DNA of 60,126 nucleotides from an uncultured bacterium. GTDB taxonomy: Bacteria; Zixibacteria; MSB-5A5; GN15; PGXB01. A model generated the notes under the pieces. It saw only the letters and a list, made by a program, of their open reading frames with translations. It did no database searches and was not told the origin of the DNA. Position 1 is the stretch's first letter; each line of letters begins with the position of its first letter. The stretch covers positions 1 through 60,126 of the forward strand of contig CBFCZE010000001.1 in assembly GCA_965602655.1 (NCBI GenBank). The letters run 5' to 3'. The position numbers and the translations under genes were made by a program. This document shows, in pieces, positions 3,338-29,276 of the stretch.

Positions 3338-4498
3338 ATGGGCAAAGGCGCAGCCACTCTCGGTTCAATGGCAGAAACCTGTAATGACCCTGCCAATATG
3401 CCGGTGGGACAGGTCATTGCCGCCGGGACGGTTTTAATTAATAAAAAACCGGCCGCAAAAAAGAACGACCAGATTGTTGGGGTTGACACTCATATTGTTT
3501 TGGTTCCTGCTCCACCCAGTCCCTCGCCAGTGCCAACCCCCCTGCCACATCCGTATACTGGCATGATTGACGGAGGACTTAGTTCCTCGGTAAACATAAT
3601 GGGTCAACCGGCGGCAACGGTTGACAGCACTGCCACAAATACGCCATCGCATATTGCCACTCCTCCCGGTGTTTCCTTTCAAAAACCGCCTGACAACAAG
3701 GCAACAATTAAAATGGGTAGTTTTGACGTCATGATCGGCAATGGTGGCAGTGGCAGTGGTAGTGGCAGCGGCGGCGGCAGTTCCGTACAAACCGAAACGG
3801 CGGCGGTTGAGGTTGACAAGGGGCATTTTCTTGATTTGAAATTTGTCGATAAGGGCGGCAAAGAAATCTCCGGTATCAATTATTCAATCAAATCACCCAG
3901 CAATGAAGAGATCAGCGGGATTATCAGCGGCCAAATTAAACAGGCCGGTTTAAAAGAAGGCGATTATGAGGTAGAGCTGAAAGCTATCACAAAAGCGGAA
4001 TGGTCCACTAACAGCGCTCATGTCGGCGATAAGGTCAAACTGCTGGTAGATTCGGTTGGAATTGAGGATGACGAAAAGGCAGTTTTGCAGGTGTTTATTA
4101 AAGATTCCAACTGCGCCGACCGGCTCCACAAATCTTTCGACTGCAAAATCAGCGGCGGGAAAATAGAATATGAGTGGGAATTGGAAGTTGATGATAACCT
4201 TGCTGAAAATCAGGATGCCAAAGTAAGAAGCAGCGGGTATTCATCGCCTGCGTTTTATTTTGCTGTTATGGTAGCTAATCTAAAAACTAAATCGGGTCTT
4301 TTGATTTTTAAGGACTATGTTGAGTTAGAGTTGAAAGACGACGATGATAAACCGATTGGAAACGTAAAATATACGGTCTATCTTCCTAACGGCGGGGTTA
4401 AGGAAGGTTATTTAGATAAAGACGGATATGCCAAAGTTGAAGATCTTCCGCCCGGTAAAATAGAATATAAATATGACATAAGAGATCGTAAGCAGTAG
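3338..4498 (+). CDS. PAAR-like spike-tip protein with Gly/Ser linker and ~235-aa beta-rich C-terminal extension
   Basis: ATG 3338 with GAAGGTG just upstream (the ORF track starts at GTG 3332). The N-terminal ~135 aa carry PAAR-type segments: LINKKPAAKKNDQIVGVDTH, PLPHPYTGMIDGGLSSSVNIMGQPAATVDS, ATIKMGSFDVMIGNG. A (G/S)14 linker occupies 3743-3784. It lies upstream of a T6SS core. Confidence 0.7.
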   Translation: MGKGAATLGSMAETCNDPANMPVGQVIAAGTVLINKKPAAKKNDQIVGVDTHIVLVPAPPSPSPVPTPLPHPYTGMIDGGLSSSVNIMGQPAATVDSTATNTPSHIATPPGVSFQKPPDNKATIKMGSFDVMIGNGGSGSGSGSGGGSSVQTETAAVEVDKGHFLDLKFVDKGGKEISGINYSIKSPSNEEISGIISGQIKQAGLKEGDYEVELKAITKAEWSTNSAHVGDKVKLLVDSVGIEDDEKAVLQVFIKDSNCADRLHKSFDCKISGGKIEYEWELEVDDNLAENQDAKVRSSGYSSPAFYFAVMVANLKTKSGLLIFKDYVELELKDDDDKPIGNVKYTVYLPNGGVKEGYLDKDGYAKVEDLPPGKIEYKYDIRDRKQ

Positions 4499-4520
4499 AT
4501 ATTTATTGCTTTTTATTAAT

Positions 4521-7500
4521 ATGCCCCCACCAAAAACACATACAAAAATAGTCACTCCCTTAAAGGGAAAATCAGTTGATATTATTGAGTTCGGAAAAGA
4601 ACTCTATAATAAAAATAGTGTTGTCCTGATGCCCGGAAAGGTTGAAAATGATATTGCCACAACCGATCACCAGGCCATGATGAAGCTTGCGGAAAGTGTG
4701 GGCTTTGTTGGAATTGCGGCTATTTTTAAACAGTTCAGTTATGATTCGCGAAAACGGTTAATATTAACCGGTCATACCGATTCTATAAATGATAAATATG
4801 CCGCTCATTTCCGTTTGAGCAAGGAGAGGGCCGAGGCGGTCTATTGTTTGCTTACGGGGAAAAAGAATCGTTGGGCGAAACTGGCACACGATAAGCATTG
4901 TATTCGGGATTATAAATGCATAATGACCTTTTTTCGATATCTTGGCGGAGATGCTTTTAAAGGTAAAGATAATTGCGATCCGGCAAAAATCGATAATGAA
5001 TGGGATGATAAAAACAAAACGCGCAACGCAGTTAGAGCCTTTTTTAAGTGTGTCAAAAAACATTACAATTTAACCATTGATGATAAAAAACTGGCCAAAG
5101 GCGTTGAAAAGGATGCCAAGAAATTGTGGCCGGAGATAATCTGGAAATCTGTTTTCGATCTGTATGTCGAACAGATACGGAAATTTCTCAAAGTCGATGC
5201 CGCCGGTCTAAAAGATTACCGCGAAAAAAAGTTAAAATTTGCACAGGCCGGTAAAGAATTTTTAGGGTGCGGATCATCGTTTCCTATGAAAACGCCCGAT
5301 GGCAGCAAATACCAGAAAGAGAAATATAGGCGGGTTGAATCTCTCTTTTTCTATCTTGACGATGTTCCGGCCCGCACAAAAGGAACGCCCAGAATTGTCT
5401 GTATCCCGGTGACCGATAAATTGCATGAAGAAAAACAGTGTCCTTTTTATCACGATAAACATTTTGTGGCCAATTATCTCAATCCGCTCAATGAATTGAA
5501 TTGGGTACCCTATCATATGAAGTTTGACTTCTATAATCAGGTTCAGCTCAAAAATGATGTTCCCAAGGTCAGGCAGGTTCCGGAAGGGTTGACTATAAAG
5601 GCCTTTCATTATAAAAAAGTTGGAGGCAATGATAAAAAAGAGGCAATTAGCACCATTATTAAATACCATAAGGGTGTTTATTCTGTTAAGGTTCCCGACG
5701 ATGACAAGCGAAAAAATATATATTTTGAATTCTCGTCAGTTACTAAAAAGGCGCCCAAGATTGAACGATGGTGGGTATACACAAAAGATGAAAATACCGA
5801 GCCGAAGCTGGAAAAGAAACTGGATGAGGACATAAATAAATTATTGACACCGAATGATTATTATAAACGGCTCAGTTTTTATGATCTGCCAGAGGAATGG
5901 TCATCCGAAAATTATATGACCAGATATAAGGAGGGCAATTCCTGGAAGGGCGGCCGGTATCAGGATGTAATGAAGACAGATTTGAAACTCAAGCCATTTG
6001 GTACAAAAGAAGCCGAAGCTGAAAAGCCTATAATATTTTCGTTGGACGATATTGTCTTGGTTGATAAGGATGGCAAACAGGATATTAAAGATAAAGATAA
6101 GACTGATGCCGATAAGGTTCTTTCCGACAAATCAAGATTGTCTCTGTTACATGTTCTCAAGGACGAACTGGTATTATATAAGCCAAGAGAAAGTGATTGT
6201 GTCCAGAATCCCAAAATCAAATCGGCATGCTTTAGCGAGATTGATTTTAGGAAAGAAGGAGTAAATTCCTGGTTTAATGTTATTTCCGATGTTCCGGCCA
6301 ACACCCGCGGAATTATGTTTTGCAATAATTTTTATGGTGTTTTCCATAAGCGTGCCGGTCAGACTGCAGCTACATTTGATCCGAAAAAGAAACATATAAA
6401 AGGTTGTCGGGCTGCCTCTCTTGTAGATGCCGAAGGTCATTGTTCGGTTAAATATAAATATGATCCTTATCTAGACACCAGTACAAAAATTACGCTGACC
6501 AATAATAGTAAAAATGTCAACGGAAATAGCACCACGTTTACGACCAAATTTAAAAAGGGCTACAAAATAAAAACATATGATGGATCTAAATGGAATAAGG
6601 ACTTGCATTATGTTGATTCAATCCAGAATGATACAGGGCTAACTCTGGTGGAAAAGGCGACTGCCACCGAGAACGGTGTTTTTTATCAGGGAATTCCCTA
6701 CTGCCATTATTCTGCAGATGACGTTGGCAATTATGAACTGCATTATATCCATTTTGGATTTGCAAAAAAAAGCCCGGACACGTATAAAGGAGGATATAAA
6801 GTACGATCTTTTTTACTGATTTACTGGAACGGACGGTTCGAGGATAAGACTGATAACACAGAAGATCCATATACGGTTACCGCGGCTGATGTTGAGACAT
6901 TTGAAAGAACCGGACTGAATAATGTAAAGACTCATTGGGAAAAAAAGAAATATAAGCTTGAGCCAGCAGAATTAGATGCTGACCAAAAGGGCAAAATTCA
7001 GATTACACCGGTTTTCTTTTATGAAGCAAAAACTACCGATCGCGGAGGCAAACATAAATGTATGGTCTCAATTGCAAATTATTTTGTTGGTAATATGGGC
7101 TTGGATACCTCAATGATGTACTATAAATTATATCAACAATACCATTCCGCGACAGTATTTGCCTGGGGGCCACCGGTTGTTGATATAGATACACTTCAAT
7201 TTGGTGATTTAACCGCGGCTCATGAACTTGGCCACGCCATTGGTCTTGATGATGATTATATTTATCGCAAAGGCGAAAAATATATAAATGCCAAAGATGC
7301 TCATTTCAGCCAATATTATCTGGGCATGCCATATCATCATGATGATTTTTCTATAATGACAAAAAATAAGGCACCCAGAATGAGGCATTTGTGGCATATT
7401 ATGAACCGCCTCAATTCGGCGGCTGACAATAATACGGAATTAAAAAAGTTGCTTAATGGAACCGAATATCAGATAGTCCACCGCTTCACAAAAAATACTG

Positions 7501-8270
7501 TCAATAAGGTATTGCGTTATCGATTAAAAAATTCTCCCGATGATTATCGTGATATTCTAAGGCCATTTAAAGAAAAGAGAAAACATAGCACCGGAACGGG
7601 CAAAGTAGATTTGGCATTATACAAACTTGGTGAAGATGAAATGACCTGGAATATCAACATTACTCCTACCCCGGCAGGACCCGCATTTAATTTTAATGGA
7701 ATTCTTGTGGTTTTTATCAAAATAGGGTTTATTTTCAAGAACTTTACTGATAATAGCGATCCCGCCCATGTTGTCACCCATAACTGGGGTAATAACAAGA
7801 AAAGTAGATTTATGGATGATATCAAGGCAAAGATTAATGAACTGAATAGGCGTTTTTATTTAAAGGGTACAAACCTTGATTTCAAAAATACATATATATT
7901 CTTTTTCCCCCTTTGCCTCGAATATGATTTCATTAAAACGAAATATGGCAATGCCGATGAAACGGCGACAAAAACTGCCGCGCATATTACTATTGAAGCT
8001 GAGTTTAATGGTACCAAAAAGGCAAAAGCAAGATCATCCCCGCTAACCAAGTTGGAGGTGGGCGATATGGTCGATTTTGATTGGGTGGCAAAATGTATAT
8101 TGGGCAAAGATCCTGGAGATACTTTGGGACATGATAAGAATTGGACCGATTGGGGTACTCCAAGTGCGGACCAGGCAAAATTTACGACGGCAGATTTTGA
8201 ACATCTTAAGACATGGATTAATTCCGCTGATGGTTTAAACGGTGGTGCATTTGAATTGAAAGGAACTTAG
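4521..8270 (+). CDS. 1249-aa putative T6SS cargo: OmpA-like peptidoglycan-binding segment + Zn-metallopeptidase (HExxHxxGxxD) domain
   Basis: First ATG at 4521 (the ORF track starts at TTG 4506). OmpA-family signature LILTGHTDSINDKYAAHFRLSKERAEAVYCLL at 4758-4850. Zinc motif AAHELGHAIGLDDDY with HELGH at 7221-7235. No signal peptide. It follows the PAAR gene with a 22-nt gap. Confidence 0.7.
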   Translation: MPPPKTHTKIVTPLKGKSVDIIEFGKELYNKNSVVLMPGKVENDIATTDHQAMMKLAESVGFVGIAAIFKQFSYDSRKRLILTGHTDSINDKYAAHFRLSKERAEAVYCLLTGKKNRWAKLAHDKHCIRDYKCIMTFFRYLGGDAFKGKDNCDPAKIDNEWDDKNKTRNAVRAFFKCVKKHYNLTIDDKKLAKGVEKDAKKLWPEIIWKSVFDLYVEQIRKFLKVDAAGLKDYREKKLKFAQAGKEFLGCGSSFPMKTPDGSKYQKEKYRRVESLFFYLDDVPARTKGTPRIVCIPVTDKLHEEKQCPFYHDKHFVANYLNPLNELNWVPYHMKFDFYNQVQLKNDVPKVRQVPEGLTIKAFHYKKVGGNDKKEAISTIIKYHKGVYSVKVPDDDKRKNIYFEFSSVTKKAPKIERWWVYTKDENTEPKLEKKLDEDINKLLTPNDYYKRLSFYDLPEEWSSENYMTRYKEGNSWKGGRYQDVMKTDLKLKPFGTKEAEAEKPIIFSLDDIVLVDKDGKQDIKDKDKTDADKVLSDKSRLSLLHVLKDELVLYKPRESDCVQNPKIKSACFSEIDFRKEGVNSWFNVISDVPANTRGIMFCNNFYGVFHKRAGQTAATFDPKKKHIKGCRAASLVDAEGHCSVKYKYDPYLDTSTKITLTNNSKNVNGNSTTFTTKFKKGYKIKTYDGSKWNKDLHYVDSIQNDTGLTLVEKATATENGVFYQGIPYCHYSADDVGNYELHYIHFGFAKKSPDTYKGGYKVRSFLLIYWNGRFEDKTDNTEDPYTVTAADVETFERTGLNNVKTHWEKKKYKLEPAELDADQKGKIQITPVFFYEAKTTDRGGKHKCMVSIANYFVGNMGLDTSMMYYKLYQQYHSATVFAWGPPVVDIDTLQFGDLTAAHELGHAIGLDDDYIYRKGEKYINAKDAHFSQYYLGMPYHHDDFSIMTKNKAPRMRHLWHIMNRLNSAADNNTELKKLLNGTEYQIVHRFTKNTVNKVLRYRLKNSPDDYRDILRPFKEKRKHSTGTGKVDLALYKLGEDEMTWNINITPTPAGPAFNFNGILVVFIKIGFIFKNFTDNSDPAHVVTHNWGNNKKSRFMDDIKAKINELNRRFYLKGTNLDFKNTYIFFFPLCLEYDFIKTKYGNADETATKTAAHITIEAEFNGTKKAKARSSPLTKLEVGDMVDFDWVAKCILGKDPGDTLGHDKNWTDWGTPSADQAKFTTADFEHLKTWINSADGLNGGAFELKGT

Positions 8271-8292
8271 AATCATATGCTTTTATAGGTAT

Positions 8293-9540
8293 ATGAAATG
8301 TGCAATGACAAAAATCATATATCAATTAATTTTAATTTTCCTTCCCGCTCTGATAATATTTTATGGGGCGGGGTCATGTAAAAATATGGAAGCAAAGGAT
8401 AGCAAAATGGCTTTCGAAACTAAGGATGTAGCCTACCCGGTCAGGTTTGCCAATTTCCAGAGAAATTCTAATGTCCCGGTTATGATGAAATCCAGGTGGA
8501 ATCCGGTATGGTTTAAAAAATATTCGGATATCAATATTGATTATTCATTTATACCCTATAATGTATTGGTTAGGGATAACCTTGTAGGTGTCCGCTATGA
8601 CGCAGAGATGCTATTATTTAACTCACAGGGTAATATGGTGTATCAAATGCCATTGAGTGCTTCGGGTAGTGTTGTTCTGGGTAAGACCGCTATGGCGTAT
8701 CTTGTTATGACTCATCAGATTAACTATCGAGATTATGAATTTAACCTGATTGAAAATATTGGTACACTCCCGGAATTGAATGAATGGTCATATGAATTAC
8801 TTATGTGCCCTACATTTGAAGATATTCTGGCAGTAGTTCAATTTACCGGAGGTCCTCAATATGAACCAAGGAAATATTATATTTATAAGCTTCTTCCGAA
8901 TAAAAGAGATGTTGACTGGTTCCACGAATTTGACGGTGTTGCGAATCATGCTCTTCTGACAAATGATGAAAATAACATCATTCTGGTAAATCGAAATAAT
9001 GTCAGCATTTTTAATACCGATTCGGGAGAGAATACTGGATCATTTAAAATTAATTTTGATGACACGATTGAGCCTGATGTACCATCGATTGCCTCGTTGG
9101 ATAAAAATGACAATCTTGTAATCCTTGCGGACAGAATAGTTGATGAAAAGACCGATAAATATCTGGCGGTTTATTCTCCTGACGGCAAGGAACTCTGGTC
9201 GTTCAAATTAAATGAACCCAATCTCAATCAACCGCCTGCGTGCGATAACGACGGCCGAATATTTATTATTGATGGATTACAACTTCATTGTTTAAAAGAT
9301 GGTGAAATTGATTGGACGGCGATTCTTAAACCGGCTGAAAGAAATTGGATCACTATCACTTCTGACAATCATGCCGTAGTTATAAATGGAAGCCTGCTGG
9401 CTCTGTTTGCGCCAAATGGTGAAAAACTGTTTGAACGGCTTATAACTAAGACCGATGATCAGTTTTATGCCCCGCCGGCACTTGATAAAGATGGACATAT
9501 ATTTGTGGCTGGCCAGAAGGCGTTGTACTGTTTTGAATAA
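8293..9540 (+). CDS. lipoprotein with PQQ-like/beta-propeller repeats (candidate immunity or periplasmic accessory protein)
   Basis: Lipobox-like IIFYGAGSC near the N-terminus. Repeated 'DG..W.f' blades at the C-terminus (SPDGKELWSFKL, DNDGRIFIIDGLQLHCL, DGEIDWTAIL, APNGEKLFERL, DKDGHIFVAGQKALYCF). Confidence 0.6.
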   Translation: MKCAMTKIIYQLILIFLPALIIFYGAGSCKNMEAKDSKMAFETKDVAYPVRFANFQRNSNVPVMMKSRWNPVWFKKYSDINIDYSFIPYNVLVRDNLVGVRYDAEMLLFNSQGNMVYQMPLSASGSVVLGKTAMAYLVMTHQINYRDYEFNLIENIGTLPELNEWSYELLMCPTFEDILAVVQFTGGPQYEPRKYYIYKLLPNKRDVDWFHEFDGVANHALLTNDENNIILVNRNNVSIFNTDSGENTGSFKINFDDTIEPDVPSIASLDKNDNLVILADRIVDEKTDKYLAVYSPDGKELWSFKLNEPNLNQPPACDNDGRIFIIDGLQLHCLKDGEIDWTAILKPAERNWITITSDNHAVVINGSLLALFAPNGEKLFERLITKTDDQFYAPPALDKDGHIFVAGQKALYCFE

Positions 9541-9588
9541 TTTTGAACAAAATAGGTTTACAAATAATAAAAAATAGATGGTTTTAAA

Positions 9589-10032
9589 ATGAGCAAAAAT
9601 AATCCGTTTAAATTTGATCTTCCAAAAGGCTGGATGGATCAAACCGTATACGTTTTTCAGGGTCCGAAAGAGGCCGATTTGGATCACAGTATTATGCTGA
9701 CCCTTGATAGAAAATTGCGGCACGATGAAATTTCCAATTTTGCTGCTGAAAGAACCTCGCCGATTATTGAAACGATGGATGGTATCGATGTGCTAAAGGA
9801 TGAAGAAATTACGCTACCAAACGGTAATCCGGCCTGGGAATTTGTCTACAAATGGGTTCCCGCCGATGATATGATATTTTTCCAGAAATACGTCTTTGTC
9901 TATAAGGATAAAATAGGTTTTACCTTTTCGGGAAAATTTACCAAACAGACGATTAAAACTGTCGGCGCCCAGATGAAACAAATAATTGAAACTCTTCTGC
10001 CGGGAACGTATGAGCCTTTGGATGAAGATTGA
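9589..10032 (+). CDS. DUF1795 (DcrB/Eag-like) effector-associated chaperone candidate
   Basis: 147 aa. The opening NPFKFDLPKGWMDQTVYVFQGP matches my recollection of the DUF1795 'F.LP.GW.D.T...F' start. Size is typical for the family. Its TGA stop overlaps the ATG of the next gene (TGATG). Confidence 0.55.
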   Translation: MSKNNPFKFDLPKGWMDQTVYVFQGPKEADLDHSIMLTLDRKLRHDEISNFAAERTSPIIETMDGIDVLKDEEITLPNGNPAWEFVYKWVPADDMIFFQKYVFVYKDKIGFTFSGKFTKQTIKTVGAQMKQIIETLLPGTYEPLDED

Positions 10033-11255
10033 TGTCTGATTTGAAATTCACAAAAGCGACCGATGAGGAGCATGAGATTAAACTCGATTCCCATCTTATC
10101 AGCGCCTCCTGGGTTTCCGGGATGGCCTTTGTCGGTTTAAAGCCCAAATTTGAGGTGCGCACTGTTTTTGTCGGCAATGGTTCCAAAATAAAAGTAAAGG
10201 GCAAAACCGAAAAGGGTAAAAAACTCGGTAAAGTTAAGGGTAAAATGCAAGCTAATGTTTTTACCGGCGAGTTTGAGATTCCTGATAAAATAGAGTTGGA
10301 TGATCAGATATATTTTGAAGTCGACCTTTCCGCCAACGGTCTCAGCGGCGAATCGGCCAAAATTCCGGTATACCCGCAACCCAAACTAAAAAGTATCAAA
10401 TGGAGCGCCGATGAGGCCCGGCGTGGTGATGTCTTAACCATGTCGGCCGAGCTGGAAGATGTAAAAGACGGCGTTGAAACTAAACTGATAATATATGAGT
10501 TTGACAACGATGGCGCCCACGATAAAATCTCTGAATTGCCGGCAACCGTCAAGGAGAGTAAAATTGAAGAGATGTGGGAGTATGAATATCACGAGGATAC
10601 CGATGAACTCCCCACCAGCGAGGAGGTCGAAAAATACGGTGGATCATATAATCCGCCTGAATATTTTTTCACTATCAAAGTCGGTGAATTTGAACTGGGA
10701 AAAGAAAATCAGGATTCGGGGATTTTGAATTTTAAAGACTGGTTTGAATATAAGCTTGAAGATGAAAATGGTACTTCGATAGCCGATGAAAAGTACAAAG
10801 CGATATTGCCCGATGGTCAGGAAAAAGAAGGTAAAACCGATTCTGACGGATTAATAATTATTAAAGAAGTCCCTCCCGGTAAAGTTAAAATTGAATTTCC
10901 TTCGGATGAAGACGAAGATGAAGAAGAAGAAAAAGAGGAGGAAGAAAAGGATGCTGAGGAACAGAAAATTCCGGAGGGCCAGGCGGATCAGACTCAAACG
11001 CAGTCAGGTGAAGATGTAGATTCAGTGGAAGAAGAAGATAGTGACGAAGATCAGGAAGAAAATAAGGAAGATGATGACGATGAAGAATTGAATCAGGCAA
11101 GAGAAGAAACAGGGACCGGTTCATCAACGCAGTCGGGCAGAAGTGGTGGGGCGACCCAGACAGGTGAATCGGGCGGTTCGACTCAATCAGATGATACATC
11201 CAGCTCAACACAACAGGATGATTCCTCGCAAACATCAACGCAATCAGGAGCTTAA
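10032..11255 (+). CDS. hypothetical protein: beta-rich N-terminal domains shared with the PAAR protein extension + long acidic / Ser-Thr-Gln-rich tail
   Basis: ATG 10032 is coupled to the upstream stop. Segment ~10392-10600 (SIKWSADEARRGDVL...IEEMWEYEYHED) resembles PAAR-protein segment ~3991-4194 (KAEWSTNSAHVGDKV...IEYEWELEVDD). Motif YKAILPDGQEKEGKTDSDGLIIIKEVPPGKVKIEFP at 10794-10901. Low-complexity tail ~10905-11252. Confidence 0.6.
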   Translation: MSDLKFTKATDEEHEIKLDSHLISASWVSGMAFVGLKPKFEVRTVFVGNGSKIKVKGKTEKGKKLGKVKGKMQANVFTGEFEIPDKIELDDQIYFEVDLSANGLSGESAKIPVYPQPKLKSIKWSADEARRGDVLTMSAELEDVKDGVETKLIIYEFDNDGAHDKISELPATVKESKIEEMWEYEYHEDTDELPTSEEVEKYGGSYNPPEYFFTIKVGEFELGKENQDSGILNFKDWFEYKLEDENGTSIADEKYKAILPDGQEKEGKTDSDGLIIIKEVPPGKVKIEFPSDEDEDEEEEKEEEEKDAEEQKIPEGQADQTQTQSGEDVDSVEEEDSDEDQEENKEDDDDEELNQAREETGTGSSTQSGRSGGATQTGESGGSTQSDDTSSSTQQDDSSQTSTQSGA

Positions 11256-11323
11256 GTTAGAATATTTTTATATGATTGTTCTTTTCCATATTTGAAGGGG
11301 CAATAGCCGAATTTGAGGTTATT

Positions 11324-17279: not shown

Positions 17280-17296
17280 AAAAGAGGTGATTATTA

Positions 17297-19210: not shown

Positions 19211-19224
19211 ATAAATTTATATTT

Positions 19225-19250
19225 TCGGGCGGAGTGAAAACTCCGCCCGA
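19225..19250 (+). terminator. GC-rich hairpin between hcp and vgrG (possible attenuator / partial terminator)
   Basis: TCGGGCGGAG (19225-19234), loop TGAAAA, CTCCGCCCGA (19241-19250): a perfect 10-bp stem 15 nt after the hcp stop. The downstream U-tract is poor (GTAAAATTATTT). Confidence 0.45.
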
Positions 19251-19278
19251 GTAAAATTATTTAAAGGCGGTTTCACTC

Positions 19279-21012: not shown

Positions 21013-21028
21013 ATAGATGTTGATATAA

Positions 21029-21403: not shown

Positions 21404-21418
21404 AATGGGGTAAATATT

Positions 21419-23083
21419 ATGTCTGAAAATAAATCGTTATCATATGATAAAATATTTGCCCAGATGCATCGGGAACTGCGAACCTGGAACCGCGATATAC
21501 CGGAATCACCGGATCGGCTGGATCCAATTTTAAAAATTATGATGCAGATGCATGCGCATCAGTTATCCCGCTTGGATAAACGGATTGATCTGGTTTGGGA
21601 AAATGCCAAGGAATCATTGATTCGAACAGTTTGTCCCGAAAGTATGCGGTGGCCGATTCCTGCAATCACCGTCATGAGTTGTGAGCCGGAGGATGCGATA
21701 ATTGAAGTCGATCCACATACCCGCTTTTTCTACAAAGAACAGCGCGAGCGCGGTCAAACTTTCTTTTTCTCAGGACTTCGGAAAGAGAAAATTCTTTCGG
21801 CGGAGGTTAAATATATATTTTTGAAGACAGGAGAAAATTTTTTTGATCTGGATAATTTAGGCGGGGGAGAAGATACTTTTTCTGTTTCATCGATAAAAAA
21901 GATTTCCGGCGGCGACAATCAATTGTATGTCGCCGTTGATTATGAAGGGGCCTTATCTAATTTTTCCGATACGGCACTTTTTGTTAAGGGTCATCCTGAC
22001 CTTTTGAGACAGATGCAGTGGAGCAAGTGGTACCCCGGTTCGAATTTTGGAGGATTTCATGAAGATTGCGGCTTTTGTCCCGGGCGGAATAACACTCTCG
22101 AGAGTATGTTTTCCCAATCTGACAAGCAGGTAGAATGGGGCAGTCTCCGCTCAACCGATGATCTTTATACGATACTCGCCAATAGTTTTGTTCGCCTGCC
22201 GGAAAATTTTGTTTCTACCTGGGAGGTTGGGCCGCCTAATGAAAAACTTCAGGAATTCATTAAAAAACAGGAACACCCTCTGGCCAGCGAAAGTGGAAAT
22301 CAGTTCTGGATCAAGATCGACCTGCCAGAGAAAGGGCGGAGAGATGTTTTTTCCGAAGGATTAAAGATTTTATTTAATTGCTTTATTGTCGCCAATAAAA
22401 ATGAGTTGACTCTTTTTAAGCATACCGGCGGTTATAAGTTGATCGAAATCGAATTGCCCGATGATCTTGATAATATTCTTGAGATAAATCGAGTCGTCGA
22501 TTCCAACGGCCGCGAGTATAAAATCCGACATTTGGCTTCCGAACGGGATCAGGGGATATACTCTCTTGAAGAACGGAAAAATAAACTTGTCTTATGGTTT
22601 GATTATACGCAGGATATTGATCGGCCTCCCGATTCTATTACCATATATTATTCGACTACATCAGGCATTAGTGCCAATGGTATAGATGCCGGAGAAATCA
22701 CCGAGCTATATGAAAGCCATCCGGGGATTGTCTCGGCTCAAAATGTCTTACCGACCGGTGGAGCCATACCGGCCAAAACTGCCGAGCAGATTGCATCCGA
22801 GGTGGCATCTCGGCTGAGAAATCGAGACCGTGCGTTAAGTTTCACCGAAATCGCCAATTGGGCAACCGCCTTTGATCCAAGAATAAAAAGGGCGGAATGT
22901 TCCAATTCAATAGAGCGGGCCCGAAGAGGTATTCGTCGTTGTATCCTGGTGACCGTTTTGGTTAATCCCGAAAAGTTTTATTCCGACAGCGAAACCGAGC
23001 TCTTAAAAGAAAGGTTGGGGATTTATTTGAAATCACGGGTTCCGGTCAATACCCATTTCAAAATAAAGATTGTTACAAAATGA
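21419..23083 (+). CDS. tssF: TssF-like baseplate protein
   Basis: 554 aa, between tssE and tssG, with a 4-nt overlap with the next gene. Called by size and synteny; no diagnostic motif recognised by eye. Confidence 0.6.
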   Translation: MSENKSLSYDKIFAQMHRELRTWNRDIPESPDRLDPILKIMMQMHAHQLSRLDKRIDLVWENAKESLIRTVCPESMRWPIPAITVMSCEPEDAIIEVDPHTRFFYKEQRERGQTFFFSGLRKEKILSAEVKYIFLKTGENFFDLDNLGGGEDTFSVSSIKKISGGDNQLYVAVDYEGALSNFSDTALFVKGHPDLLRQMQWSKWYPGSNFGGFHEDCGFCPGRNNTLESMFSQSDKQVEWGSLRSTDDLYTILANSFVRLPENFVSTWEVGPPNEKLQEFIKKQEHPLASESGNQFWIKIDLPEKGRRDVFSEGLKILFNCFIVANKNELTLFKHTGGYKLIEIELPDDLDNILEINRVVDSNGREYKIRHLASERDQGIYSLEERKNKLVLWFDYTQDIDRPPDSITIYYSTTSGISANGIDAGEITELYESHPGIVSAQNVLPTGGAIPAKTAEQIASEVASRLRNRDRALSFTEIANWATAFDPRIKRAECSNSIERARRGIRRCILVTVLVNPEKFYSDSETELLKERLGIYLKSRVPVNTHFKIKIVTK

Positions 23084-24006
23084 GTGCCCCCGATAAAATA
23101 ATGCCCGATTTTTGCAATCGGCGTTTTCCATTTCATTTCACCACGGCGATGCATATTTTGAGAAAAATGGGCATCGACCCAAAAACTATTGAAATTCTGG
23201 CTATCGGCAAATATGAAAATTATAAGGGCGAAATAAGTAGCCAGGAACCGGCGCCAAAAACTCAGATTACACGTGGTACAAAAATAGTCTTACAGGTAGG
23301 ATGTACCAGCGCTATCGATCTTATGCCATATCAATTTTTCTATGGGCTGGCCGGTATAACTGATAGAGCATCTGATTGGGAAAATAGCGCCAGGCGATTA
23401 ATGGCGCCGTTTGACGCCGCCTTTATCAGATATATGGCCGCCGCTTCCTATGAAAACATGAAATTCAATTTCAATTTTATCGATGATAAACATCTGTCAA
23501 AGTATCTTGAATTATATGATTTTGCCGGAATTGATATCAGCGATCCGGCAACCGCGGCACGATGGCAGGCTATTATGCCGACTTTTCATATCTGGGCCGG
23601 CAATTCCGAAATGACGTCAAAAATCTTAAGATTTCTTTTTGGTTTGGATTTTCAAATTAATGAAAGTGTTCCAATCCGATTCGAAATTCCCAAAGATTTG
23701 AAATACACTCTTGGTTCAAAAAGCAAAAGACTGGGATATGAATCTATTGCCGGTACGGCTTTTGTTGAGTGTGACACCGGCTACCAGGTGGTTATAAGCG
23801 GCCTTAAAGAGGAAGATGTCCCTGAGCTTTTGCCGGGAAAACCGTTGCGGAAAAAAATTGAAGCGGTTCTGGATTACTGTATGCCGGGAAACCTCAATTA
23901 TATAATCAGAATTAAAGTTGATAAGGAAAAAGCCTTACTTGGCGACAAAACAAATAAGGGATATTTGGGATTTACTACATTTATAAAGGATAAAGAATTA
24001 TACTAA
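23080..24006 (+). CDS. tssG: TssG-like baseplate protein
   Basis: 308 aa, translationally coupled to tssF (ATGA overlap). Called by size and synteny only. Confidence 0.55.
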   Translation: MSAPDKIMPDFCNRRFPFHFTTAMHILRKMGIDPKTIEILAIGKYENYKGEISSQEPAPKTQITRGTKIVLQVGCTSAIDLMPYQFFYGLAGITDRASDWENSARRLMAPFDAAFIRYMAAASYENMKFNFNFIDDKHLSKYLELYDFAGIDISDPATAARWQAIMPTFHIWAGNSEMTSKILRFLFGLDFQINESVPIRFEIPKDLKYTLGSKSKRLGYESIAGTAFVECDTGYQVVISGLKEEDVPELLPGKPLRKKIEAVLDYCMPGNLNYIIRIKVDKEKALLGDKTNKGYLGFTTFIKDKELY

Positions 24007-24029
24007 TTTTTTGTAATAAACTTATAAAC

Positions 24030-24058
24030 TTGACATTGTTTGAATCAAAATGTAGATT
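24030..24058 (+). promoter_or_regulatory. sigma70-like internal promoter upstream of tssK (TTGACA-N17-TAGATT)
   Basis: TTGACA at 24030-24035, a 17-nt spacer, TAGATT at 24053-24058, in the 76-nt gap between tssG and tssK. Confidence 0.4.
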
Positions 24059-24082
24059 CTTTGGAAGGTTTGAGGCAAGATA

Positions 24083-25531
24083 ATGAGTGACTTAAACTTA
24101 TATTCGGTTAACTGGCAGGACGGCATGCTGATAACGCAGCGTCATTTAATGGATCAGGAAAAATACTTTGAAACGTTGACCAGATGGCAGGCTCTCAACA
24201 CAGGTTTTGGTTATGGTCTCGTATCCAAATCGACTGCCGGAAAATCAACGCTTAATCTTAATTTAACCGTTAATGGTGATCAACTGCGAGTTGAGGTTAG
24301 CCGCTGCCAGGCTCTGACGCCGGGCGGGCATTATATTGAGATTAACGATACTTTAAATAATCCCCTCAAAGCGGAATGCCAGGTGGGTGATTCTCCCATG
24401 ATTGTATATATCGGTATCGATCCGAAAAACAAAAATGCTGTCGGCGATGCCGAACCCGAGGAGGAGTTGCCTCGCCTGCCGTATCGTGTTAACCAGTACT
24501 TGCTTTCTCTTGGGGAACCGCCTAATCTTCCGGAGGAAAATTATATTCCCGCGGCCGAGTTAAATGTTTCAGGCGGCGAGGTTAGCCTGTCGAATGATTA
24601 TTATCCGCCGTGTGTGACCGTTTCGGCCGGTGAACATCTAATGCAGAAAGCCGGCGATTTTAAAAATCGACTGGAGAATCTGTTATCCTTGGCCTCTCGC
24701 GCTTTTATGGCGATGGCATCCGATACATCATTGTCAGGTGAAAAAACAAATTTGCAGACTGCTTATCGTGATATGATGTCCCTCTTCGTTTATAATCTGG
24801 CTTCGATGCTGGATGATTTTGCGGTCGGGCGCCGGATGATGCATCCATTAAAACTGATTATCAACATAAAGAAACTTTTCCGGGTATTATCATCGCTTTT
24901 AAATATGCAGCCCGGTTTGAAGGACTATCTCAATGAGCGGTACTTCAGTAAAGAGCGAAAATCCGAGATTGGCCGGTTTCTGGCCCTGATTGACGGATTT
25001 CTTTTGAGTGAGTATAATCATCTTGATATTAGATCTCAGGTAAAAGTAATTGATGAAATATTTGAAGAGCTACGCGGTTTGATGGGCTTTTTAGCGCAGA
25101 CCAAACGGGAGCAGCTCGGCGATCAGGCGGTGGCGACCGACACGCTAACATACCGAAGCCGAACCTACCGGTTAGCCGAGTATGGTTCAAACAAAGTTGA
25201 GAATATCGGCGGACTTAATTATTTGATGATTGAAATTTCCAAGCCGCTGCCGATATCTGATACTGTGATTCTGATGTCAAAAGATTTATTTGGCGATGCC
25301 GGATGGGCCAGTATGCAGGTACGGTTGGGTCTTAATGACGCCCGCGGATTGGGCGAAACCGACCCGGTCGATATCGATGGGACTACTTTTGGAAACAAAG
25401 TGACTCTGCATCCGCAGGATATGCTCCAATCACAAGCGGTGAAGCAGATAACATTAATTTTCCGTGGAGCTGGAGATACAGATAAATTTTCCGGTTTAGG
25501 TAAAACTGACCTTATAATATATACTTTGTAA
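24083..25531 (+). CDS. tssK: TssK baseplate protein
   Basis: 482 aa. The N-terminus SVNWQDGMLITQRHLMDQEKYFE matches the canonical TssK opening 'V.W.EGM.L.PQHFQQ.D.Y'. Confidence 0.75.
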   Translation: MSDLNLYSVNWQDGMLITQRHLMDQEKYFETLTRWQALNTGFGYGLVSKSTAGKSTLNLNLTVNGDQLRVEVSRCQALTPGGHYIEINDTLNNPLKAECQVGDSPMIVYIGIDPKNKNAVGDAEPEEELPRLPYRVNQYLLSLGEPPNLPEENYIPAAELNVSGGEVSLSNDYYPPCVTVSAGEHLMQKAGDFKNRLENLLSLASRAFMAMASDTSLSGEKTNLQTAYRDMMSLFVYNLASMLDDFAVGRRMMHPLKLIINIKKLFRVLSSLLNMQPGLKDYLNERYFSKERKSEIGRFLALIDGFLLSEYNHLDIRSQVKVIDEIFEELRGLMGFLAQTKREQLGDQAVATDTLTYRSRTYRLAEYGSNKVENIGGLNYLMIEISKPLPISDTVILMSKDLFGDAGWASMQVRLGLNDARGLGETDPVDIDGTTFGNKVTLHPQDMLQSQAVKQITLIFRGAGDTDKFSGLGKTDLIIYTL

Positions 25532-25547
25532 AGGCAGGAAGTAACAG

Positions 25548-26477
25548 ATGGCGGCTGAGATTGAATCATATATAGACGACCTTTTTAATTATCTTGATAT
25601 CTATAAGAACCGGCAGTCGGAATTCAAGACCGAGGCTTTTTTGCAGACCTACAACGGTGTTTCGGCGGTCTTTAATACGTTGCGTCAACAAAGAGATGAG
25701 GCGGTCCATGTTGACCTGTATTTCCTCAATAAAATAAAGGCGACTCCATTGGCCGATTCCGATCTGCGCGAATTAACCATTCAGATTCTGATTACCTATT
25801 TTGAATCTGAGGCTGACACCGACGGCCAGTCCAACAAAGCCTTTTCGTATTGCCGCGGGCTTCGTACTGTCAAGCAGGATGTCCCGTATTTTGAAAACTA
25901 TCTGATGCCTCTCTTACTTAAAGAGAGAAGCCTTAAGGATAATTTCAAACTCAATACATTTTTCCTTAATGAAATTGCACGGTACATTAATAAGTTTGGA
26001 CGACCGCTCAATCCTAATATGACCCCGGAAAAATTTGCCTCGAAAAACAACCCGCTTAAATTGTTGGAGCTGACCAGACGTCGCCAGCAGTTAGGTAAGG
26101 ATTTAGTTTCGGATCGAAATTCACTTGAATTTGACCTGAAACGTCTTGGCGTTTTTGATAAGGTTTCTGAGAAGAATAAACTGATTGCTCAATATTTTGA
26201 CGAATGGAAATATTGTGAAAAGGGTGATTTTCTCTCAAAAGTCAAAGGCTGGTTATCTGAATTTGGCGGAAAATTCGGTGGCGCCTTTTCCAGTTTCCGG
26301 TATTTCCGGTTGGTCATTACTCAGCGTAAGGCGGCCTATTTGTTTTACAGCTTAATTATTATTCTGTTTTTATTATTGGCCGTTTATGTTCCGTCCAAAT
26401 GGAGAGAGAATTCACAGACTAAATTTGAACAGTTGCAAAAAAGAGCCTCCGAGGTCCCGAGTGGATCCGGTCGCTAA
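25548..26477 (+). CDS. tail-anchored inner-membrane protein (TssL/DotU-like topology, no recognisable sequence similarity)
   Basis: 309 aa: ~260 aa soluble and helical, a single TM AAYLFYSLIIILFLLLAVYV (~26330-26392), and a short C-terminal tail. It begins 16 nt after tssK. Confidence 0.6.
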   Translation: MAAEIESYIDDLFNYLDIYKNRQSEFKTEAFLQTYNGVSAVFNTLRQQRDEAVHVDLYFLNKIKATPLADSDLRELTIQILITYFESEADTDGQSNKAFSYCRGLRTVKQDVPYFENYLMPLLLKERSLKDNFKLNTFFLNEIARYINKFGRPLNPNMTPEKFASKNNPLKLLELTRRRQQLGKDLVSDRNSLEFDLKRLGVFDKVSEKNKLIAQYFDEWKYCEKGDFLSKVKGWLSEFGGKFGGAFSSFRYFRLVITQRKAAYLFYSLIIILFLLLAVYVPSKWRENSQTKFEQLQKRASEVPSGSGR

Positions 26478-26513
26478 TATAAATTGAATATATTTTGAGG
26501 TTAAAATAAAATT

Positions 26514-28718
26514 GTGAAACCGGGAAAAATTTTAAAGAAGCTGGTAAAAGTTTTTAAAAGCAGCTCCGGGGACGGTAAAAAAGGCGGCTCGGCTTTTGAC
26601 TGGCCATCGGGAACCAAAATAGCCATTTACGGTCATGCCAATGCCGGTAAGACGGTCTATTTTACCGTTCTCAACGAAGAGTGCAAAATCGGCAAGGATT
26701 TACAGCTATCGATTACCGATACGGCCACCGCCAGCGATATTTTATCAAATTATCGTGCTATCTGGGGTGTCGGTAGCGAGACCGGTTCCGGGACAGTCGT
26801 CGATTTGCGCGGTGAAAAAAAGTTCCCCGATTCCACCCCCGACGGAAAACTTTTTCTGTTTAATGCCATTGTTGATCGGAGCAGTAAATATTCGGTTTGT
26901 ACTTATGATTATGGCGGCAAAGCAATCTCTCTCAACAGCAGCGGCGAGCTAGCCGAAAAGGTAGCTGATTTTACCCTTGGAAGTGACGGTGTCCTGTTTT
27001 TCTTTGATCCCAAGGTGCTGGGGGCGGAAATGCAAACCCACGCCCATGTCGCTTCGTTTGTAAGCCTTTTGGAAAAACTGGCGCCGTTGGATAAGAAACT
27101 TCCGATACCGGTCGCACTGGTAATTACCAAAGCTGATATTTTACCCGGCTTTTCCGGCGAGGATAAATCGGTTTTGGTCAGCCCGGAGGATGAAAATATC
27201 CTGTCCGAAGATTTTGACTTTTTCCTTGAAAAAATACTCAACTCAAATAAAATTGCCTCTAATTCTGCCTGGTCTGGATCGGTCAGGAATGTACTTGTCA
27301 AGTTGCGCGAATTTTTGAAAGTCATTGTCGGTCGGACCTTGAATTTCCAGATATTTTTCGTTTCATCGACCGGACAGCAGCCGGAAAAAATCGGCACCGA
27401 TGTTGGACGTTCATTATACGCTCCACCCACAAAAATTAAACCGATCGGTGTTAAAGAACCGTTTTACTGGCTTCTAAATTCAATCGTTCAAAATAAACGT
27501 ATCGCCGGTTTTAAAAAACTGGCCAGATTTGTAGCTTATGTAAGTCTTTTATGGGTAGTTCTCTTTTCCGTACCTTATCTTTATCATGATAAATTCCTTC
27601 TGGAGCGTGCCATAAAAGCGGAAATGGATGTTCTTAAGGCATATTCGGGTAATATTTATAACACATCATTGAAGGAACGGAACAATGTTATAAATGCGTA
27701 CCGTAAGTACGACAACACCTGGATTACGCGCAATCTTTTTCCCCGATTTAGAAATCCGATTGCACGTATCAGGAGCCGTTATGAGAATTTCAATCTGGGC
27801 GAAGCCTTGGAGCGGTTGGATGAAACATTCCTGACTTTCAACGTTATCGTCAAGGACAAAAAACTCTGGCCGAAATTGAATCCCAGCGATACAACTCTTA
27901 TCGAGACAGAAAATCACAAAAAGCTGGTGGAAAATCTGGACAATTTCCATCAGGGTGATGAATCGACATCGCTGTACAAACGCAGCGGTCGGGCACTGAC
28001 ATATTGGAATCTTTTTACCCAGGCGATTCTGGCGCCAACCGATACGACTATCTGGGAGACAATCCGCCAACAGGTGGAGCAGGATAATAATCTTTACGCC
28101 TCCGATATGAGCAAAGCCGAAAAAGACCTGGGTTCATCATTAACTGCTCAGAGGGCAGAAAAAATTAAAACAGTGGTCGCCAAAGAAGTTGCCCAGAAAG
28201 CTGGTGTTGAATTTGACGATGTCATTGACAATGTTAACAATAACATGGATCCCGATTATCGATTTGGAAAAGCAATCCGGGATCTTCGCAAAGTTCGCGG
28301 CAAACTTGACCCGGCAAACACAAAAGCGATATCCTCAATTGATAAATATATCAGCGAAGTCAAAAAATGGGAAAAACGGCAAAGCTTTACCTGTAAAATA
28401 GGCGCGATTCCCGATCAGGGACATCTGCACATAGAAGTAACCGGCAAAGGACAGGACCCGTCGTGGTCGGAATTCTCTCAAATATTCGAAGGTGACGAAT
28501 TCAGCTTCAAGTGGAAACTTGGCGATGAGATACATATTGCTTATGATACTCCAGATATTGCCGAAACCTGGGGCAAGGATGCCAGCGACAAGAAAACCTT
28601 GCGAGGTAATGTGGCGGTTTTTGAAATGGATGGAGAAATAAATTTCAGTAATGTCGGTAAGACGGTTAGTATCAGCTTTACACCGGGCCTGATTGATCGT
28701 ATGCCGACTTTGGAGTAA
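26514..28718 (+). CDS. membrane-anchored GTPase-like P-loop protein with ~370-aa extracytoplasmic C-terminal domain
   Basis: GTG start. G1 GHANAGKT (26631-26654), G3 DYGG (26907-26918), G4 TKAD (27126-27137). One TM FVAYVSLLWVVLFSVPYLY (~27523-27585). The rest is mixed helical/beta. Confidence 0.7.
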   Translation: MKPGKILKKLVKVFKSSSGDGKKGGSAFDWPSGTKIAIYGHANAGKTVYFTVLNEECKIGKDLQLSITDTATASDILSNYRAIWGVGSETGSGTVVDLRGEKKFPDSTPDGKLFLFNAIVDRSSKYSVCTYDYGGKAISLNSSGELAEKVADFTLGSDGVLFFFDPKVLGAEMQTHAHVASFVSLLEKLAPLDKKLPIPVALVITKADILPGFSGEDKSVLVSPEDENILSEDFDFFLEKILNSNKIASNSAWSGSVRNVLVKLREFLKVIVGRTLNFQIFFVSSTGQQPEKIGTDVGRSLYAPPTKIKPIGVKEPFYWLLNSIVQNKRIAGFKKLARFVAYVSLLWVVLFSVPYLYHDKFLLERAIKAEMDVLKAYSGNIYNTSLKERNNVINAYRKYDNTWITRNLFPRFRNPIARIRSRYENFNLGEALERLDETFLTFNVIVKDKKLWPKLNPSDTTLIETENHKKLVENLDNFHQGDESTSLYKRSGRALTYWNLFTQAILAPTDTTIWETIRQQVEQDNNLYASDMSKAEKDLGSSLTAQRAEKIKTVVAKEVAQKAGVEFDDVIDNVNNNMDPDYRFGKAIRDLRKVRGKLDPANTKAISSIDKYISEVKKWEKRQSFTCKIGAIPDQGHLHIEVTGKGQDPSWSEFSQIFEGDEFSFKWKLGDEIHIAYDTPDIAETWGKDASDKKTLRGNVAVFEMDGEINFSNVGKTVSISFTPGLIDRMPTLE

Positions 28719-28748
28719 CTAAAAGATACTTAAAAAAGGAGTTGGGGG

Positions 28749-29276
28749 ATGAATAAAAGGATTTCAAAAGTTTCGATTGTTTTAATTCTTGTCGTTTTTA
28801 TAGTATCTGTTTTTTCGGTCAATTTTGCTCTGGCCGGGAAAATTATGATTCCCAAAGATACCGAAGTCAAAATCAGATTCGACCCCAATATGGTGATTAA
28901 CTCCAGGACCACATCGGAGGGAATCCCGCTTTTGATAAATCTGGCCGAATCGATTGAAATCGGCGGTGTGACTATTGTCGAAAAGGGTGCCGCCGGAACC
29001 GCCACTGTCGTAACAGCCGAAAAAGCCAAAAAAGCCGGCAAACCGGGGCTTATCAAAATTGAGTTTATCGATCTGGAAACTAAAGGCGATTTCAGCCTGG
29101 CCGAAGGCGAGAAAATTAAATTGACCGGAAGCGCCGAAGGAAAAGGTAAGGGTAAAAAACTCTTATCATTAATACTTGGTTTTGGACTCTTTATCAAGGG
29201 CGGTGAGGGTACAATCCCGACCGACCAGTTTTACACCGCCACCGTCGCCGAGAACATCATCCTCGAGAGCGAATAG
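28749..29276 (+). CDS. small secreted hypothetical protein, last gene of the T6SS-linked string
   Basis: 175 aa. Signal peptide VSIVLILVVFIVSVFSVNFALAGK (no lipobox Cys). RBS AAGGAG. Beta-rich, with Lys/Gly-rich patches. Confidence 0.6.
   Translation: MNKRISKVSIVLILVVFIVSVFSVNFALAGKIMIPKDTEVKIRFDPNMVINSRTTSEGIPLLINLAESIEIGGVTIVEKGAAGTATVVTAEKAKKAGKPGLIKIEFIDLETKGDFSLAEGEKIKLTGSAEGKGKGKKLLSLILGFGLFIKGGEGTIPTDQFYTATVAENIILESE

Follow-up and report, generated by a model that had tools for sequence, protein, structure and literature searches.

We have analyzed positions 1–60,126 (forward strand) of contig CBFCZE010000001.1, a stretch of 60,126 nucleotides (nt), here called the window, from a Zixibacteria genome (GCA_965602655.1; Zixibacteria; MSB-5A5; GN15; PGXB01), and find in it a real, conserved, and undescribed variant of the system for type VI secretion (T6SS). 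Judged by its sequence, the locus probably encodes a functional-looking contractile T6SS whose lineage is sister to the T6SS-iii of Bacteroidota yet distinct from it. Three proteins encoded downstream of the core genes, p309, p734, and p175 (hereafter the trio), whose role we infer, would on the same reading provide a reduced or very divergent TssL/TssM-like pair and not TssN–R. With firing parts like those of T6SS-iii and a different, conserved, GTPase-centered set of membrane proteins, the system looks like an undescribed T6SS subtype.

The T6SS core lies on the plus strand at positions 14265–25531 and consists of a split ClpV, TssB, TssC, Hcp, VgrG, TssE, TssF, TssG, and TssK. It is preceded by a PAAR/effector block (3338–13966) and followed by three membrane or secreted open reading frames (ORFs). 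From 14265 to 29276 the genes are co-directional, with an operon-like intergenic spacing of −4 to 78 nt. Profile scans against Pfam and NCBIfam covered the large ORFs of the window; copies 2 and 3 of a membrane cassette (45437–52712), HutI (37879–39144), and most overlapping shadow ORFs lay outside them. Every gene named in an initial annotation of the window was found where that annotation had placed it and is backed by profile matches, weakly so for TssF. TssB, the small sheath subunit (16839–17279), matches PF05591 and TIGR03358, and TssC, the large subunit (17297–18724), matches PF17541 with 227 bits and has no match to VipB (PF05943) or TIGR03355. The Hcp/TssD tube protein (18803–19210) belongs to PF17642 (E = 1.7e-12, 48 bits) and reaches PF05638 only at E = 3e-3, below the cut-off. 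The VgrG spike (19279–21012) scores above the cut-off for Phage_GPD, Phage_base_V, and TIGR01646. Of the baseplate proteins, the gp25-like wedge TssE (21029–21403; PF04965, TIGR03357) and TssG (23080–24006; PF06996, TIGR03347) match their families. TssF (21419–23083) is divergent (PF05947, E = 0.018; TIGR02243, E = 5e-6) and also matches the TssF of Eisenbacteria-type and T6SS-iii loci by tblastn. TssK, the connector from baseplate to membrane (24083–25531; TIGR03353 with 61 bits, PF05936), follows TssG directly, with 76 nt between the two genes. These T6SS hallmarks are present: TssB and TssC sheath, Hcp, VgrG/PAAR, a TssE/F/G/K baseplate (TssF weak by profile), and ClpV.

Two details of the baseplate genes stand on their own. 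Residues 22–73 of TssG give a PASTA-domain match barely over the Pfam cut-off (E = 4e-5; 23.9 versus 23.2 bits), unexpected in a baseplate protein. In two independent Zixibacteria assemblies (L100, 4919–6590; L101, 4900–6574), TssF is called as two ORFs of 121 aa and 388–413 aa; either a second gene that is naturally split or a frameshift that recurs may account for this.

The cluster recurs widely within one phylum. With a 4-sequence TssC alignment as query, the scan of GTDB, one genome to a species, returned only Zixibacteria: 80 loci, 67 in a clade A (TssC 70–81% identical to that of the window) and 13 in a clade B (~40%). The same gene order is found again in 23 metagenome loci. The order ClpV-D1, ClpV-D2, TssB, TssC, Hcp, VgrG, TssE, TssF, TssG, TssK, p309, p734 is kept in both clades (tblastn, loci long enough). 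Among the 53 informative loci, 52 have p734 right behind TssK/p309, and its apparent loss from the remaining one (L008) is a run of N in the assembly. p175 stands behind p734 in each of the 16 loci long enough to show it (L001, L100, L101, and 13 metagenome loci). Past p175 the genomes have different neighbors, which marks it as the end of the conserved unit. A third Zixibacteria-like clade, represented by L102 (TssC 56%), has both p309 and p734.

The names of protein homologues and the titles of the metagenome-assembled genomes (MAGs) holding related loci identify the host as Zixibacteria/GN15, in keeping with the initial proposal of a host from the superphylum FCB (Fibrobacteres–Chlorobi–Bacteroidetes). 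The MAG titles of clade loci are mostly Zixibacteria; many third-party ones (L002, L007, L009, and others) read Ignavibacteriales or Ignavibacteria, and Acidoferrum, Calditrichota, and Saccharimonadales occur singly. These other titles are probably mislabels or belong to mis-binned contigs.

The pairing of p309 with p734 extends beyond the phylum. In the Eisenbacteria-type loci (L083, L085, and L087; TssC 33–36%), ClpV is unsplit, Hcp is encoded twice, and some genes are rearranged; the loci keep TssK (477–482 aa), a tail-anchored p309 homologue (309–314 aa; E down to 2e-19), and a p734 homologue (E = 1e-23; 735 aa in L085). Neither p309 nor p734 is present in L084, the locus that bears TssN. 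The p309/p734 module is apparently older than Zixibacteria. Two of the Eisenbacteria-type loci (L083, 12052–12873; L085, 4940–5803) encode a 273–287-aa PDZ protein at the place of TssE between VgrG and TssF, where a gp25 match was not recorded.

The downstream membrane trio

In predicted topology the trio has a C-terminal transmembrane (TM) segment in p309, a central one in p734, and an N-terminal signal in p175. p309 (25548–26477, plus strand; 309 aa) is a cytoplasmic, all-helical protein whose only TM segment is a C-terminal anchor (aa 263–281); AlphaFold2 (AF2) models it with a predicted local distance difference test score (pLDDT) of 80. It has no Pfam match, no Foldseek fold match in the PDB (best E = 0.26), no match to PF09850, and E-values of 0.36–0.79 when aligned with six TssL sequences by hhalign. 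Because neither profile nor Foldseek similarity to TssL/DotU was found, p309 was ruled out as a TssL homologue, and the link to TssL is kept as an analogy only. Homologues number 277 for p309 and >260 for p734; they have the same length, and those that carry names are almost all from Zixibacteria, Zixiibacteriota, or GN15.

p734 (26514–28718, plus strand; 734 aa) combines a cytoplasmic GTPase, one TM helix, and periplasmic domains. Its AF2 model (pLDDT 80) shows a GTPase fold at residues 30–310, the TM helix at 336–357, a helical domain at 386–620, and a β-sandwich at 623–722; positive residues before the TM helix place the GTPase in the cytoplasm. The motifs G1 (GHANAGKT at 40), G3 (DYGG at 132), and G4 (TKAD at 205) do not vary among 38 family members or between three clades. 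Foldseek, run on the whole chain with the GTPase domain dominating the matches, returns atlastin, SR-beta, dynamin-like, Ras-like, and MglA-type GTPases. The family profiles of p734 and p309 found nothing meaningful among PDB sequences. PF19993 (DO-GTPase2), the best Pfam match of the GTPase domain, is matched by 38/38 members (best E = 1e-6, which is under the gathering score), and PF14331 (IcmF-related_N) by 17/38 (best E = 0.002). p734 differs from DO-GTPase2 in carrying a periplasmic domain of 375 aa behind a TM helix, in always standing in a T6SS operon, and in having a single GTPase domain where the family name implies a double one. On a high-GC metagenome contig in which T6SS genes were not detected (L123, 8555–9481), we also noted a GTPase of 308 aa that stands alone and shares 24% identity with the p734-type GTPase domain; it may be a relative of the ancestor of that domain.

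The third protein, p175 (28749–29276, plus strand; 175 aa), is predicted to be secreted or periplasmic and β-rich, with a Sec signal (aa 10–28, AxA site). In its general layout, a hydrophobic N-terminal segment precedes a periplasmic domain. As a candidate TssJ it was ruled out by its lack of a lipobox Cys and by an hhalign comparison with TssJ (E = 0.21). Neither a vWA-domain lipoprotein nor a five-TM protein was found in the locus. In loci of two distant lineages (L001, 12790–19123; L082, 17562–21440), genes for a ~380–390-aa protein and a TPR/CsgG-like lipoprotein (25–30% identity between the lineages), absent from the window, adjoin the cluster; their products could be an outer-membrane partner encoded elsewhere in the window's genome.

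By their place behind tssK, p309 and p734 recall T6SS-i, of which the tssJKLM group is a conserved feature (PMC10781749). The T6SS-i reference loci fetched from plasmids of Paraburkholderia, Leisingera, Vibrio, Rahnella, and Campylobacter show the order tssK, tssL (icmH/DotU), tssM (for example L091, L093, L096, and L099); the first two plasmid loci found through a VgrG match were orphan VgrG islands and were discarded as T6SS references. The window copies tssK-tssL-tssM by position and topology, with TssK followed by a tail-anchored protein and then by a protein with NTPase, TM, and periplasmic parts. The initial annotation had stated that no TssM or TssL is present, which is literally true but probably misleading, because the ORFs beginning at 25548 and 26514 hold the tssL and tssM positions with a TssL-like and a reduced TssM-like topology, and p734 has weak similarity to the TssM NTPase. 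Likeness to T6SS-i extends to the TKxDxxxGF motif and a weak collinear hhalign match in p734, to a Hanks kinase nearby as in PpkA systems, and to an Eag (DUF1795) chaperone in the window. p734 has 1 TM helix and 734 aa, whereas TssM has 3 TM helices and ~1100–1300 aa; p734 is without the first two of these helices, ~400 periplasmic residues, and the IcmF-related/IcmF_C periplasmic domains. p309 does not have the DotU fold, and TssJ, TssA, Fha, and TagF were not found in the window.

Against nine TssM sequences at full length, the p734 family aligns with Prob 54–59% and E = 1e-4 over 312 collinear columns (p734 4–370 versus TssM 91–465), which run from the P-loop through the TKxDxxxGF motif into the TM helix. 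Taken alone, the stretch that begins with Walker B and ends with TKxDxxxGF (G4) gives Prob 88% and E = 3e-6. Among the controls, reversed TssM, TssL, and 11 proteins of L084 score 8–23 (E = 0.045–0.9), and H-Ras and Arf1 (sequences entered by hand) score 27 and 23 (E = 0.008–0.03). Single TssM sequences score up to 40. The similarity of p734 to TssM appears to exceed the generic GTPase background modestly. We put a specific homology of the two NTPase domains at about even chances, and that p734 is the functional counterpart of TssM at somewhat better than even.

Several observations weigh against a TssL/TssM-like platform on a tail sister to T6SS-iii. The similarity to TssM is weak (Ras reaches E = 0.008) and confined to the NTPase core, as the part after G4 alone gives E = 0.1–0.44 and the periplasmic parts alone E = 0.34–0.5. 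For the p734 family DO-GTPase2 is a better match than IcmF-related_N, p734 has a periplasmic part (~375 aa) half the size of that in TssM, and p309 has no DotU/TssL similarity detectable by profile or Foldseek. No outer-membrane component was identified in the cluster, and p175 was not found in the clade B and Eisenbacteria-type loci, for which the retrieved DNA stops short of its expected place. The TssC tree discussed below is a neighbor-joining tree only, in which the exact 25-member group has 48% bootstrap support. Finally, every interaction and role proposed for the trio is deduced from linkage and topology.

Some of these points would also suit a trio that is a linked regulatory or positioning module, such as a GTPase switch, with the envelope parts encoded elsewhere or provided by host envelope proteins. 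DO-GTPase2, the best Pfam match of p734, is a conflict/signaling family, the Foldseek matches are to atlastin, dynamin, SR-beta, and MglA-type GTPases, an outer-membrane partner was not seen in the cluster, and the CsgG-like/TPR genes of L001 and L082 adjoin it. We nevertheless consider such a module unlikely. The trio proteins are the only membrane proteins invariably linked to the core across four TssC clades, they occupy the tssL-tssM slot behind tssK, and the large conserved periplasmic domain of p734 would be needless for a cytoplasmic switch; the CsgG/TPR genes, for their part, are absent from the window.

Relation to T6SS-iii and other contractile systems

T6SS-iii is the T6SS class of Bacteroidota (Russell 2014; Bongiovanni 2024, PMC10781749). 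We compared the window with one T6SS-iii reference locus, the TssN-bearing L084, whose TssO, TssP, TssQ, and TssR genes are not named individually. TssC and Hcp of the window fall in the same Pfam families (PF17541 and PF17642) as those of L084. Identity to L084 is 32% for TssB, 29% for TssC, and 28% for TssK, lies within 28–32% for TssE, and is 24–26% for VgrG and TssF. Tblastn matches from the window fall off in the order clade B, Eisenbacteria-type loci, T6SS-iii (L084), and T6SS-i (L090 and L091), with no match for TssB, TssC, TssE, TssF, or TssG of the window in the two T6SS-i loci. The tail and baseplate parts are, as far as their sequences tell, clearly nearer to T6SS-iii than to anything else. 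Shared as well are an FCB host, PAAR/VgrG cargo in the cluster, and the absence of TssA, TssJ, and Fha, which T6SS-iii lacks and which were not found in the window; in the Pfam scans TssJ, DotU, ImpA_N, FHA, and TssN gave no match.

The two nevertheless separate in the TssC phylogeny. Relatives of TssC are rare, with only 595 among 1.84 billion representatives, and a search with a non-Zixibacteria TssC found 22 proteins. The nearest of them are an unnamed metagenome cluster with a Zixibacteria-like context in L102 (P0241, TssC 56%), Zixibacteria clade B (P0242, 41%), a cluster with a Candidatus Eisenbacteria protein (P0246, 33%), Phaeodactylibacter (P0251, 32%), and KSB1 (P0252, 29%). P0256 is the Bacteroidales TssC cluster and P0259 a TssN-linked TssC. 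In a neighbor-joining tree of 107 sequences (100 bootstraps), Zixibacteria clades A and B are monophyletic with 87% support and the Eisenbacteria-type clade has 99%. The smallest clade joining the window with the Eisenbacteria-type TssC leaves out P0256, P0259, P0251, and P0252 in 100/100 bootstraps. We read the tail parts as sister to T6SS-iii, not nested inside it. Among further TssC relatives (P0257, P0258, P0262, and P0297), some proteins have 590–613 aa with a ~170-aa N-terminal extension, and others have 1055–1330 aa with TssC at the C terminus; those with the ~170-aa extension are possibly TssB-TssC fusions.

The membrane components differ as well. T6SS-iii of Bacteroidota is made up of tssB–K, clpV, and vgrG together with a TssNQOPR membrane complex, and TssN, with five TM helices and a cytoplasmic domain, is typically encoded between tssG and tssK (PMC10781749). 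In the window there is no TssN between the adjacent tssG and tssK, TssO, TssP, TssQ, and TssR were not found, and p309, p734, and p175 are present instead. ClpV is in two genes, the host is a member of Zixibacteria, and TssC is on a separate branch. PF17555 (TssN) had no match in the window, and hhalign of the trio against TssN of L084 gave E = 0.12–0.18. Against every accessory protein of L084, the trio had no tblastn match and hhalign E-values of 0.09–0.9.

These data make it quite improbable that the locus is an ordinary T6SS-iii in which p309, p734, and p175 are TssN/O/P/Q/R diverged past recognition. The common Pfam families of TssC and Hcp and the 24–32% identity of TssB, TssC, TssE, TssF, TssK, and VgrG to L084 speak for that view, as does the general layout of p175, which matches that of TssO/P/Q; TssO, TssQ, and TssR of Bacteroidota are, moreover, often unidentifiable by sequence (PMC10781749). 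Set against this, the locus has no five-TM protein and no detected vWA lipoprotein of the TssR kind, none of the T6SS-iii components is a GTPase, the hhalign values for the trio are those of the comparison just given, and TssC stays apart from the T6SS-iii references in every bootstrap replicate.

The initial annotation had held that no described subtype fits the locus. This stands, with the T6SS-i TssC and Hcp families matching poorly or not at all, TssN–R not found, and TssC apart from the T6SS-iii references. A TssC placed inside T6SS-iii or T6SS-i and a trio matching TssL/M/J or TssN/O/P were looked for and did not appear.

The T6SS-iv of Amoebophilus and extracellular contractile injection systems (eCIS) such as Afp and PVC have the sheath-tube-spike design in common with the window, and the sheaths of Afp, PVC, and T4 are distantly similar to its own. 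In a sequence search of the PDB, TssC matched only phage and eCIS sheaths, including T4 gp18, Afp, and PVC, and no VipB or IglB chain. IglB belongs with IglA to the sheath of the Francisella T6SS-ii, whose membrane parts are PdpB, DotU, and IglE. The window differs from these systems in having ClpV, TssK, and membrane-anchored candidates in the operon. Although TssC is in plain sequence search nearer to T4 gp18 and eCIS sheaths than to VipB, an eCIS or defective prophage tail in place of a cell-anchored T6SS is scarcely credible, given ClpV, TssK, a TssB/TssC sheath, Hcp, PAAR/VgrG with effector-chaperone cargo, conservation of the cluster on chromosomes across a phylum, and no tape measure, terminator, Afp15-type ATPase, portal, capsid, or lysis genes among the scanned ORFs of the window. 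A true T6SS is also what the initial annotation had recognized.

Split ClpV, cargo, and flanking genes

ClpV/TssH is encoded in two pieces on the plus strand. The first (14265–15716; 483 aa) holds the N-domain, AAA D1, and lid (Clp_N, AAA, AAA_lid_9; TIGR03345 with 379 bits), and the second (15716–16819; 367 aa) holds AAA D2 and the small domain (AAA_2, ClpB_D2-small; TIGR03345 with 317 bits). The ClpB model TIGR03346 scores the halves equally or higher (391 and 471 bits), and both models stay below their curated cut-offs. The two halves are in different frames with a stop/start overlap, TAATG. Of 67 related loci, 63 have D1 and D2 as two ORFs and 4 as a single one; the junction is an ATGA overlap in 34 loci and a one-base overlap like that of the window in 5, and short gaps separate the halves in clade B. 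In L001, L100, and L101, D2 is called as a product of its own (364–367 aa). The Eisenbacteria-type loci and L084 have a single ClpV of 795–828 aa. A frameshift or assembly artifact was ruled out, since the split recurs in 63/67 independent assemblies with clean ATGA/TAATG overlaps; it is therefore a lineage trait and not an assembly error.

Upstream of clpV, the PAAR/effector block is on the plus strand. It begins with a PAAR spike tip (3338–4498; PAAR_motif, 27.6 bits) that continues through a Gly/Ser linker into a C-terminal prealbumin/TTR-like extension (SpaA prealbumin-like fold). Next comes a putative effector of 1254 aa (4506–8270) in whose translation we read AAHELGHAIG, a zinc-protease motif of the HExxH type; with homologues limited to 13 related loci, it counts as variable cargo. 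A probable lipoprotein (8293–9540; 415 aa), with a signal/TM segment at aa 8–26 followed by Cys, β-propeller-like repeats, and a weak PQQ_2/BamB-like match, varies across related loci and is a candidate immunity protein. The 147-aa protein encoded at 9589–10032 (PF08786, E = 9e-7) is a DUF1795/DcrB-family, Eag-type effector chaperone, PF08786 being the hidden Markov model used for finding Eag chaperones (PMC7773334); it is found in 44 related loci. p408 (10029–11255; 408 aa), with a β-rich N-terminal part and a long acidic tail, has no Pfam or NCBIfam match and is present in 47 related loci at 46–59% identity. Overlapping tblastn matches relate its N-terminal part to the C-terminal half of the PAAR protein, and this common domain may serve in loading or as an adaptor. 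The block closes with a putative membrane-targeting effector (11276–13966; 896 aa) that has 2–3 TM helices (aa 529–592) and a weak match to the BTH_I2691 family of T6SS effectors (32 bits, E = 3.6e-8; curated cut-off 150). By eye, a motif near its N terminus resembles the element common to the PAAR C terminus and p408. The Eag-type chaperone and p408 are kept in most clade A loci. Loci vary in their PAAR-proximal genes and in what fills the slot between p408 and clpV, as expected of exchangeable effector/immunity cargo.

Divergent from the PAAR gene, on the minus strand, is a gene for a Hanks-type Ser/Thr kinase (1236–3008; Pkinase, E = 8e-41) with one TM helix (aa 290–308) and an outside domain of ~280 aa. 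A 68%-identical orthologue has the same position in L012, and in six clade B loci a kinase of 344–372 aa is encoded directly upstream of clpV-D1. Between their clpV and tssK, the Eisenbacteria-type loci encode a fusion of kinase-like and FGE-sulfatase parts, with a weak Pkinase match in L083 only. In PpkA-regulated T6SSs a Hanks kinase exerts phosphorylation control, and by analogy the kinase of the window may be a candidate regulator. In one Zixibacteria genome (L100, 21063–22199), a protein with FHA, GAF, and SpoIIE (PP2C phosphatase) domains is encoded ~9 kb downstream of the cluster; it could form a phospho-regulatory circuit with the kinase.

The flanking genes named by the initial annotation were seen again in the profile scans: an S8 subtilase with a C-terminal dockerin domain (56574–59369, minus strand), a protein with three FN3 repeats (30179–31336), and a PorV/UPF0164-like barrel (39723–40685). 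LptE (39137–39676) confirms a diderm envelope. Further on, a four-gene cassette stands three times in tandem (41809–52712), with AT skew strongly negative across the block; each copy encodes a membrane protein with FN3 and DUF6754 (425, 411, and 440 aa) and, behind it, three multi-pass membrane proteins (~217, 305–337, and 214–288 aa).

Proposed mechanism and significance

Based on gene linkage and predicted topology, we propose that the tail-anchored p309 and p734 would form an inner-membrane platform, onto whose cytoplasmic faces the TssEFGK/VgrG/PAAR baseplate would dock by way of TssK. The periplasmic helical and β-sandwich part of p734 might build a periplasmic conduit together with the secreted p175. 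TssBC would polymerize around Hcp, contract, and expel VgrG-PAAR with the upstream effectors, assisted by the Eag-type chaperone, and the two-polypeptide ClpV (N-domain and D1; D2) would take the contracted sheath apart. Nucleotide binding by the TssM NTPase is reported to gate assembly in some T6SS-i, and p734, in which G1, G3, and G4 are intact, could likewise gate assembly by binding nucleotide. The neighboring Hanks kinase might add post-translational control.

A review of August 2026 recognizes four T6SS classes, with class iii restricted to Bacteroidota, and T6SS-iii was found in no genome outside Bacteroidota among >20,000 complete genomes (PMC10781749). A full-text search found no literature that links T6SS with Zixibacteria, Eisenbacteria, KSB1, Latescibacteria, or Calditrichaeota. 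It is possible, although we stop short of calling it probable, that Zixibacteria and the Eisenbacteria-type lineage carry a fifth T6SS class, characterized by a tail sister to that of T6SS-iii, a minimal TssL/TssM-like platform, and a small secreted partner. The system would extend contractile secretion, with a different envelope solution, to a widespread candidate phylum of sediment and groundwater. Standard pipelines name TssC, Hcp, TssF, TssK, and the trio of Zixibacteria genomes hypothetical proteins, so that T6SS antagonism in Zixibacteria-rich communities is missed.

The naturally split ClpV would be evidence that separate polypeptides can supply the two AAA+ rings, and a single-pass GTPase of 734 aa would offer a far simpler membrane core for study than TssM does. 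A T6SS-iii-like tail joined to a T6SS-i-like K-L-M arrangement would be an intermediate that makes testable how a phage-like tail came to be coupled to the cell envelope and whether the two known membrane complexes had independent origins. Should the homology to TssM hold, a TssLM-type platform would predate the split between the proteobacterial and FCB lineages and the TssNQOPR complex of Bacteroidota would be a later replacement, which would settle the question of replacement versus independent acquisition left open previously (PMC10781749).

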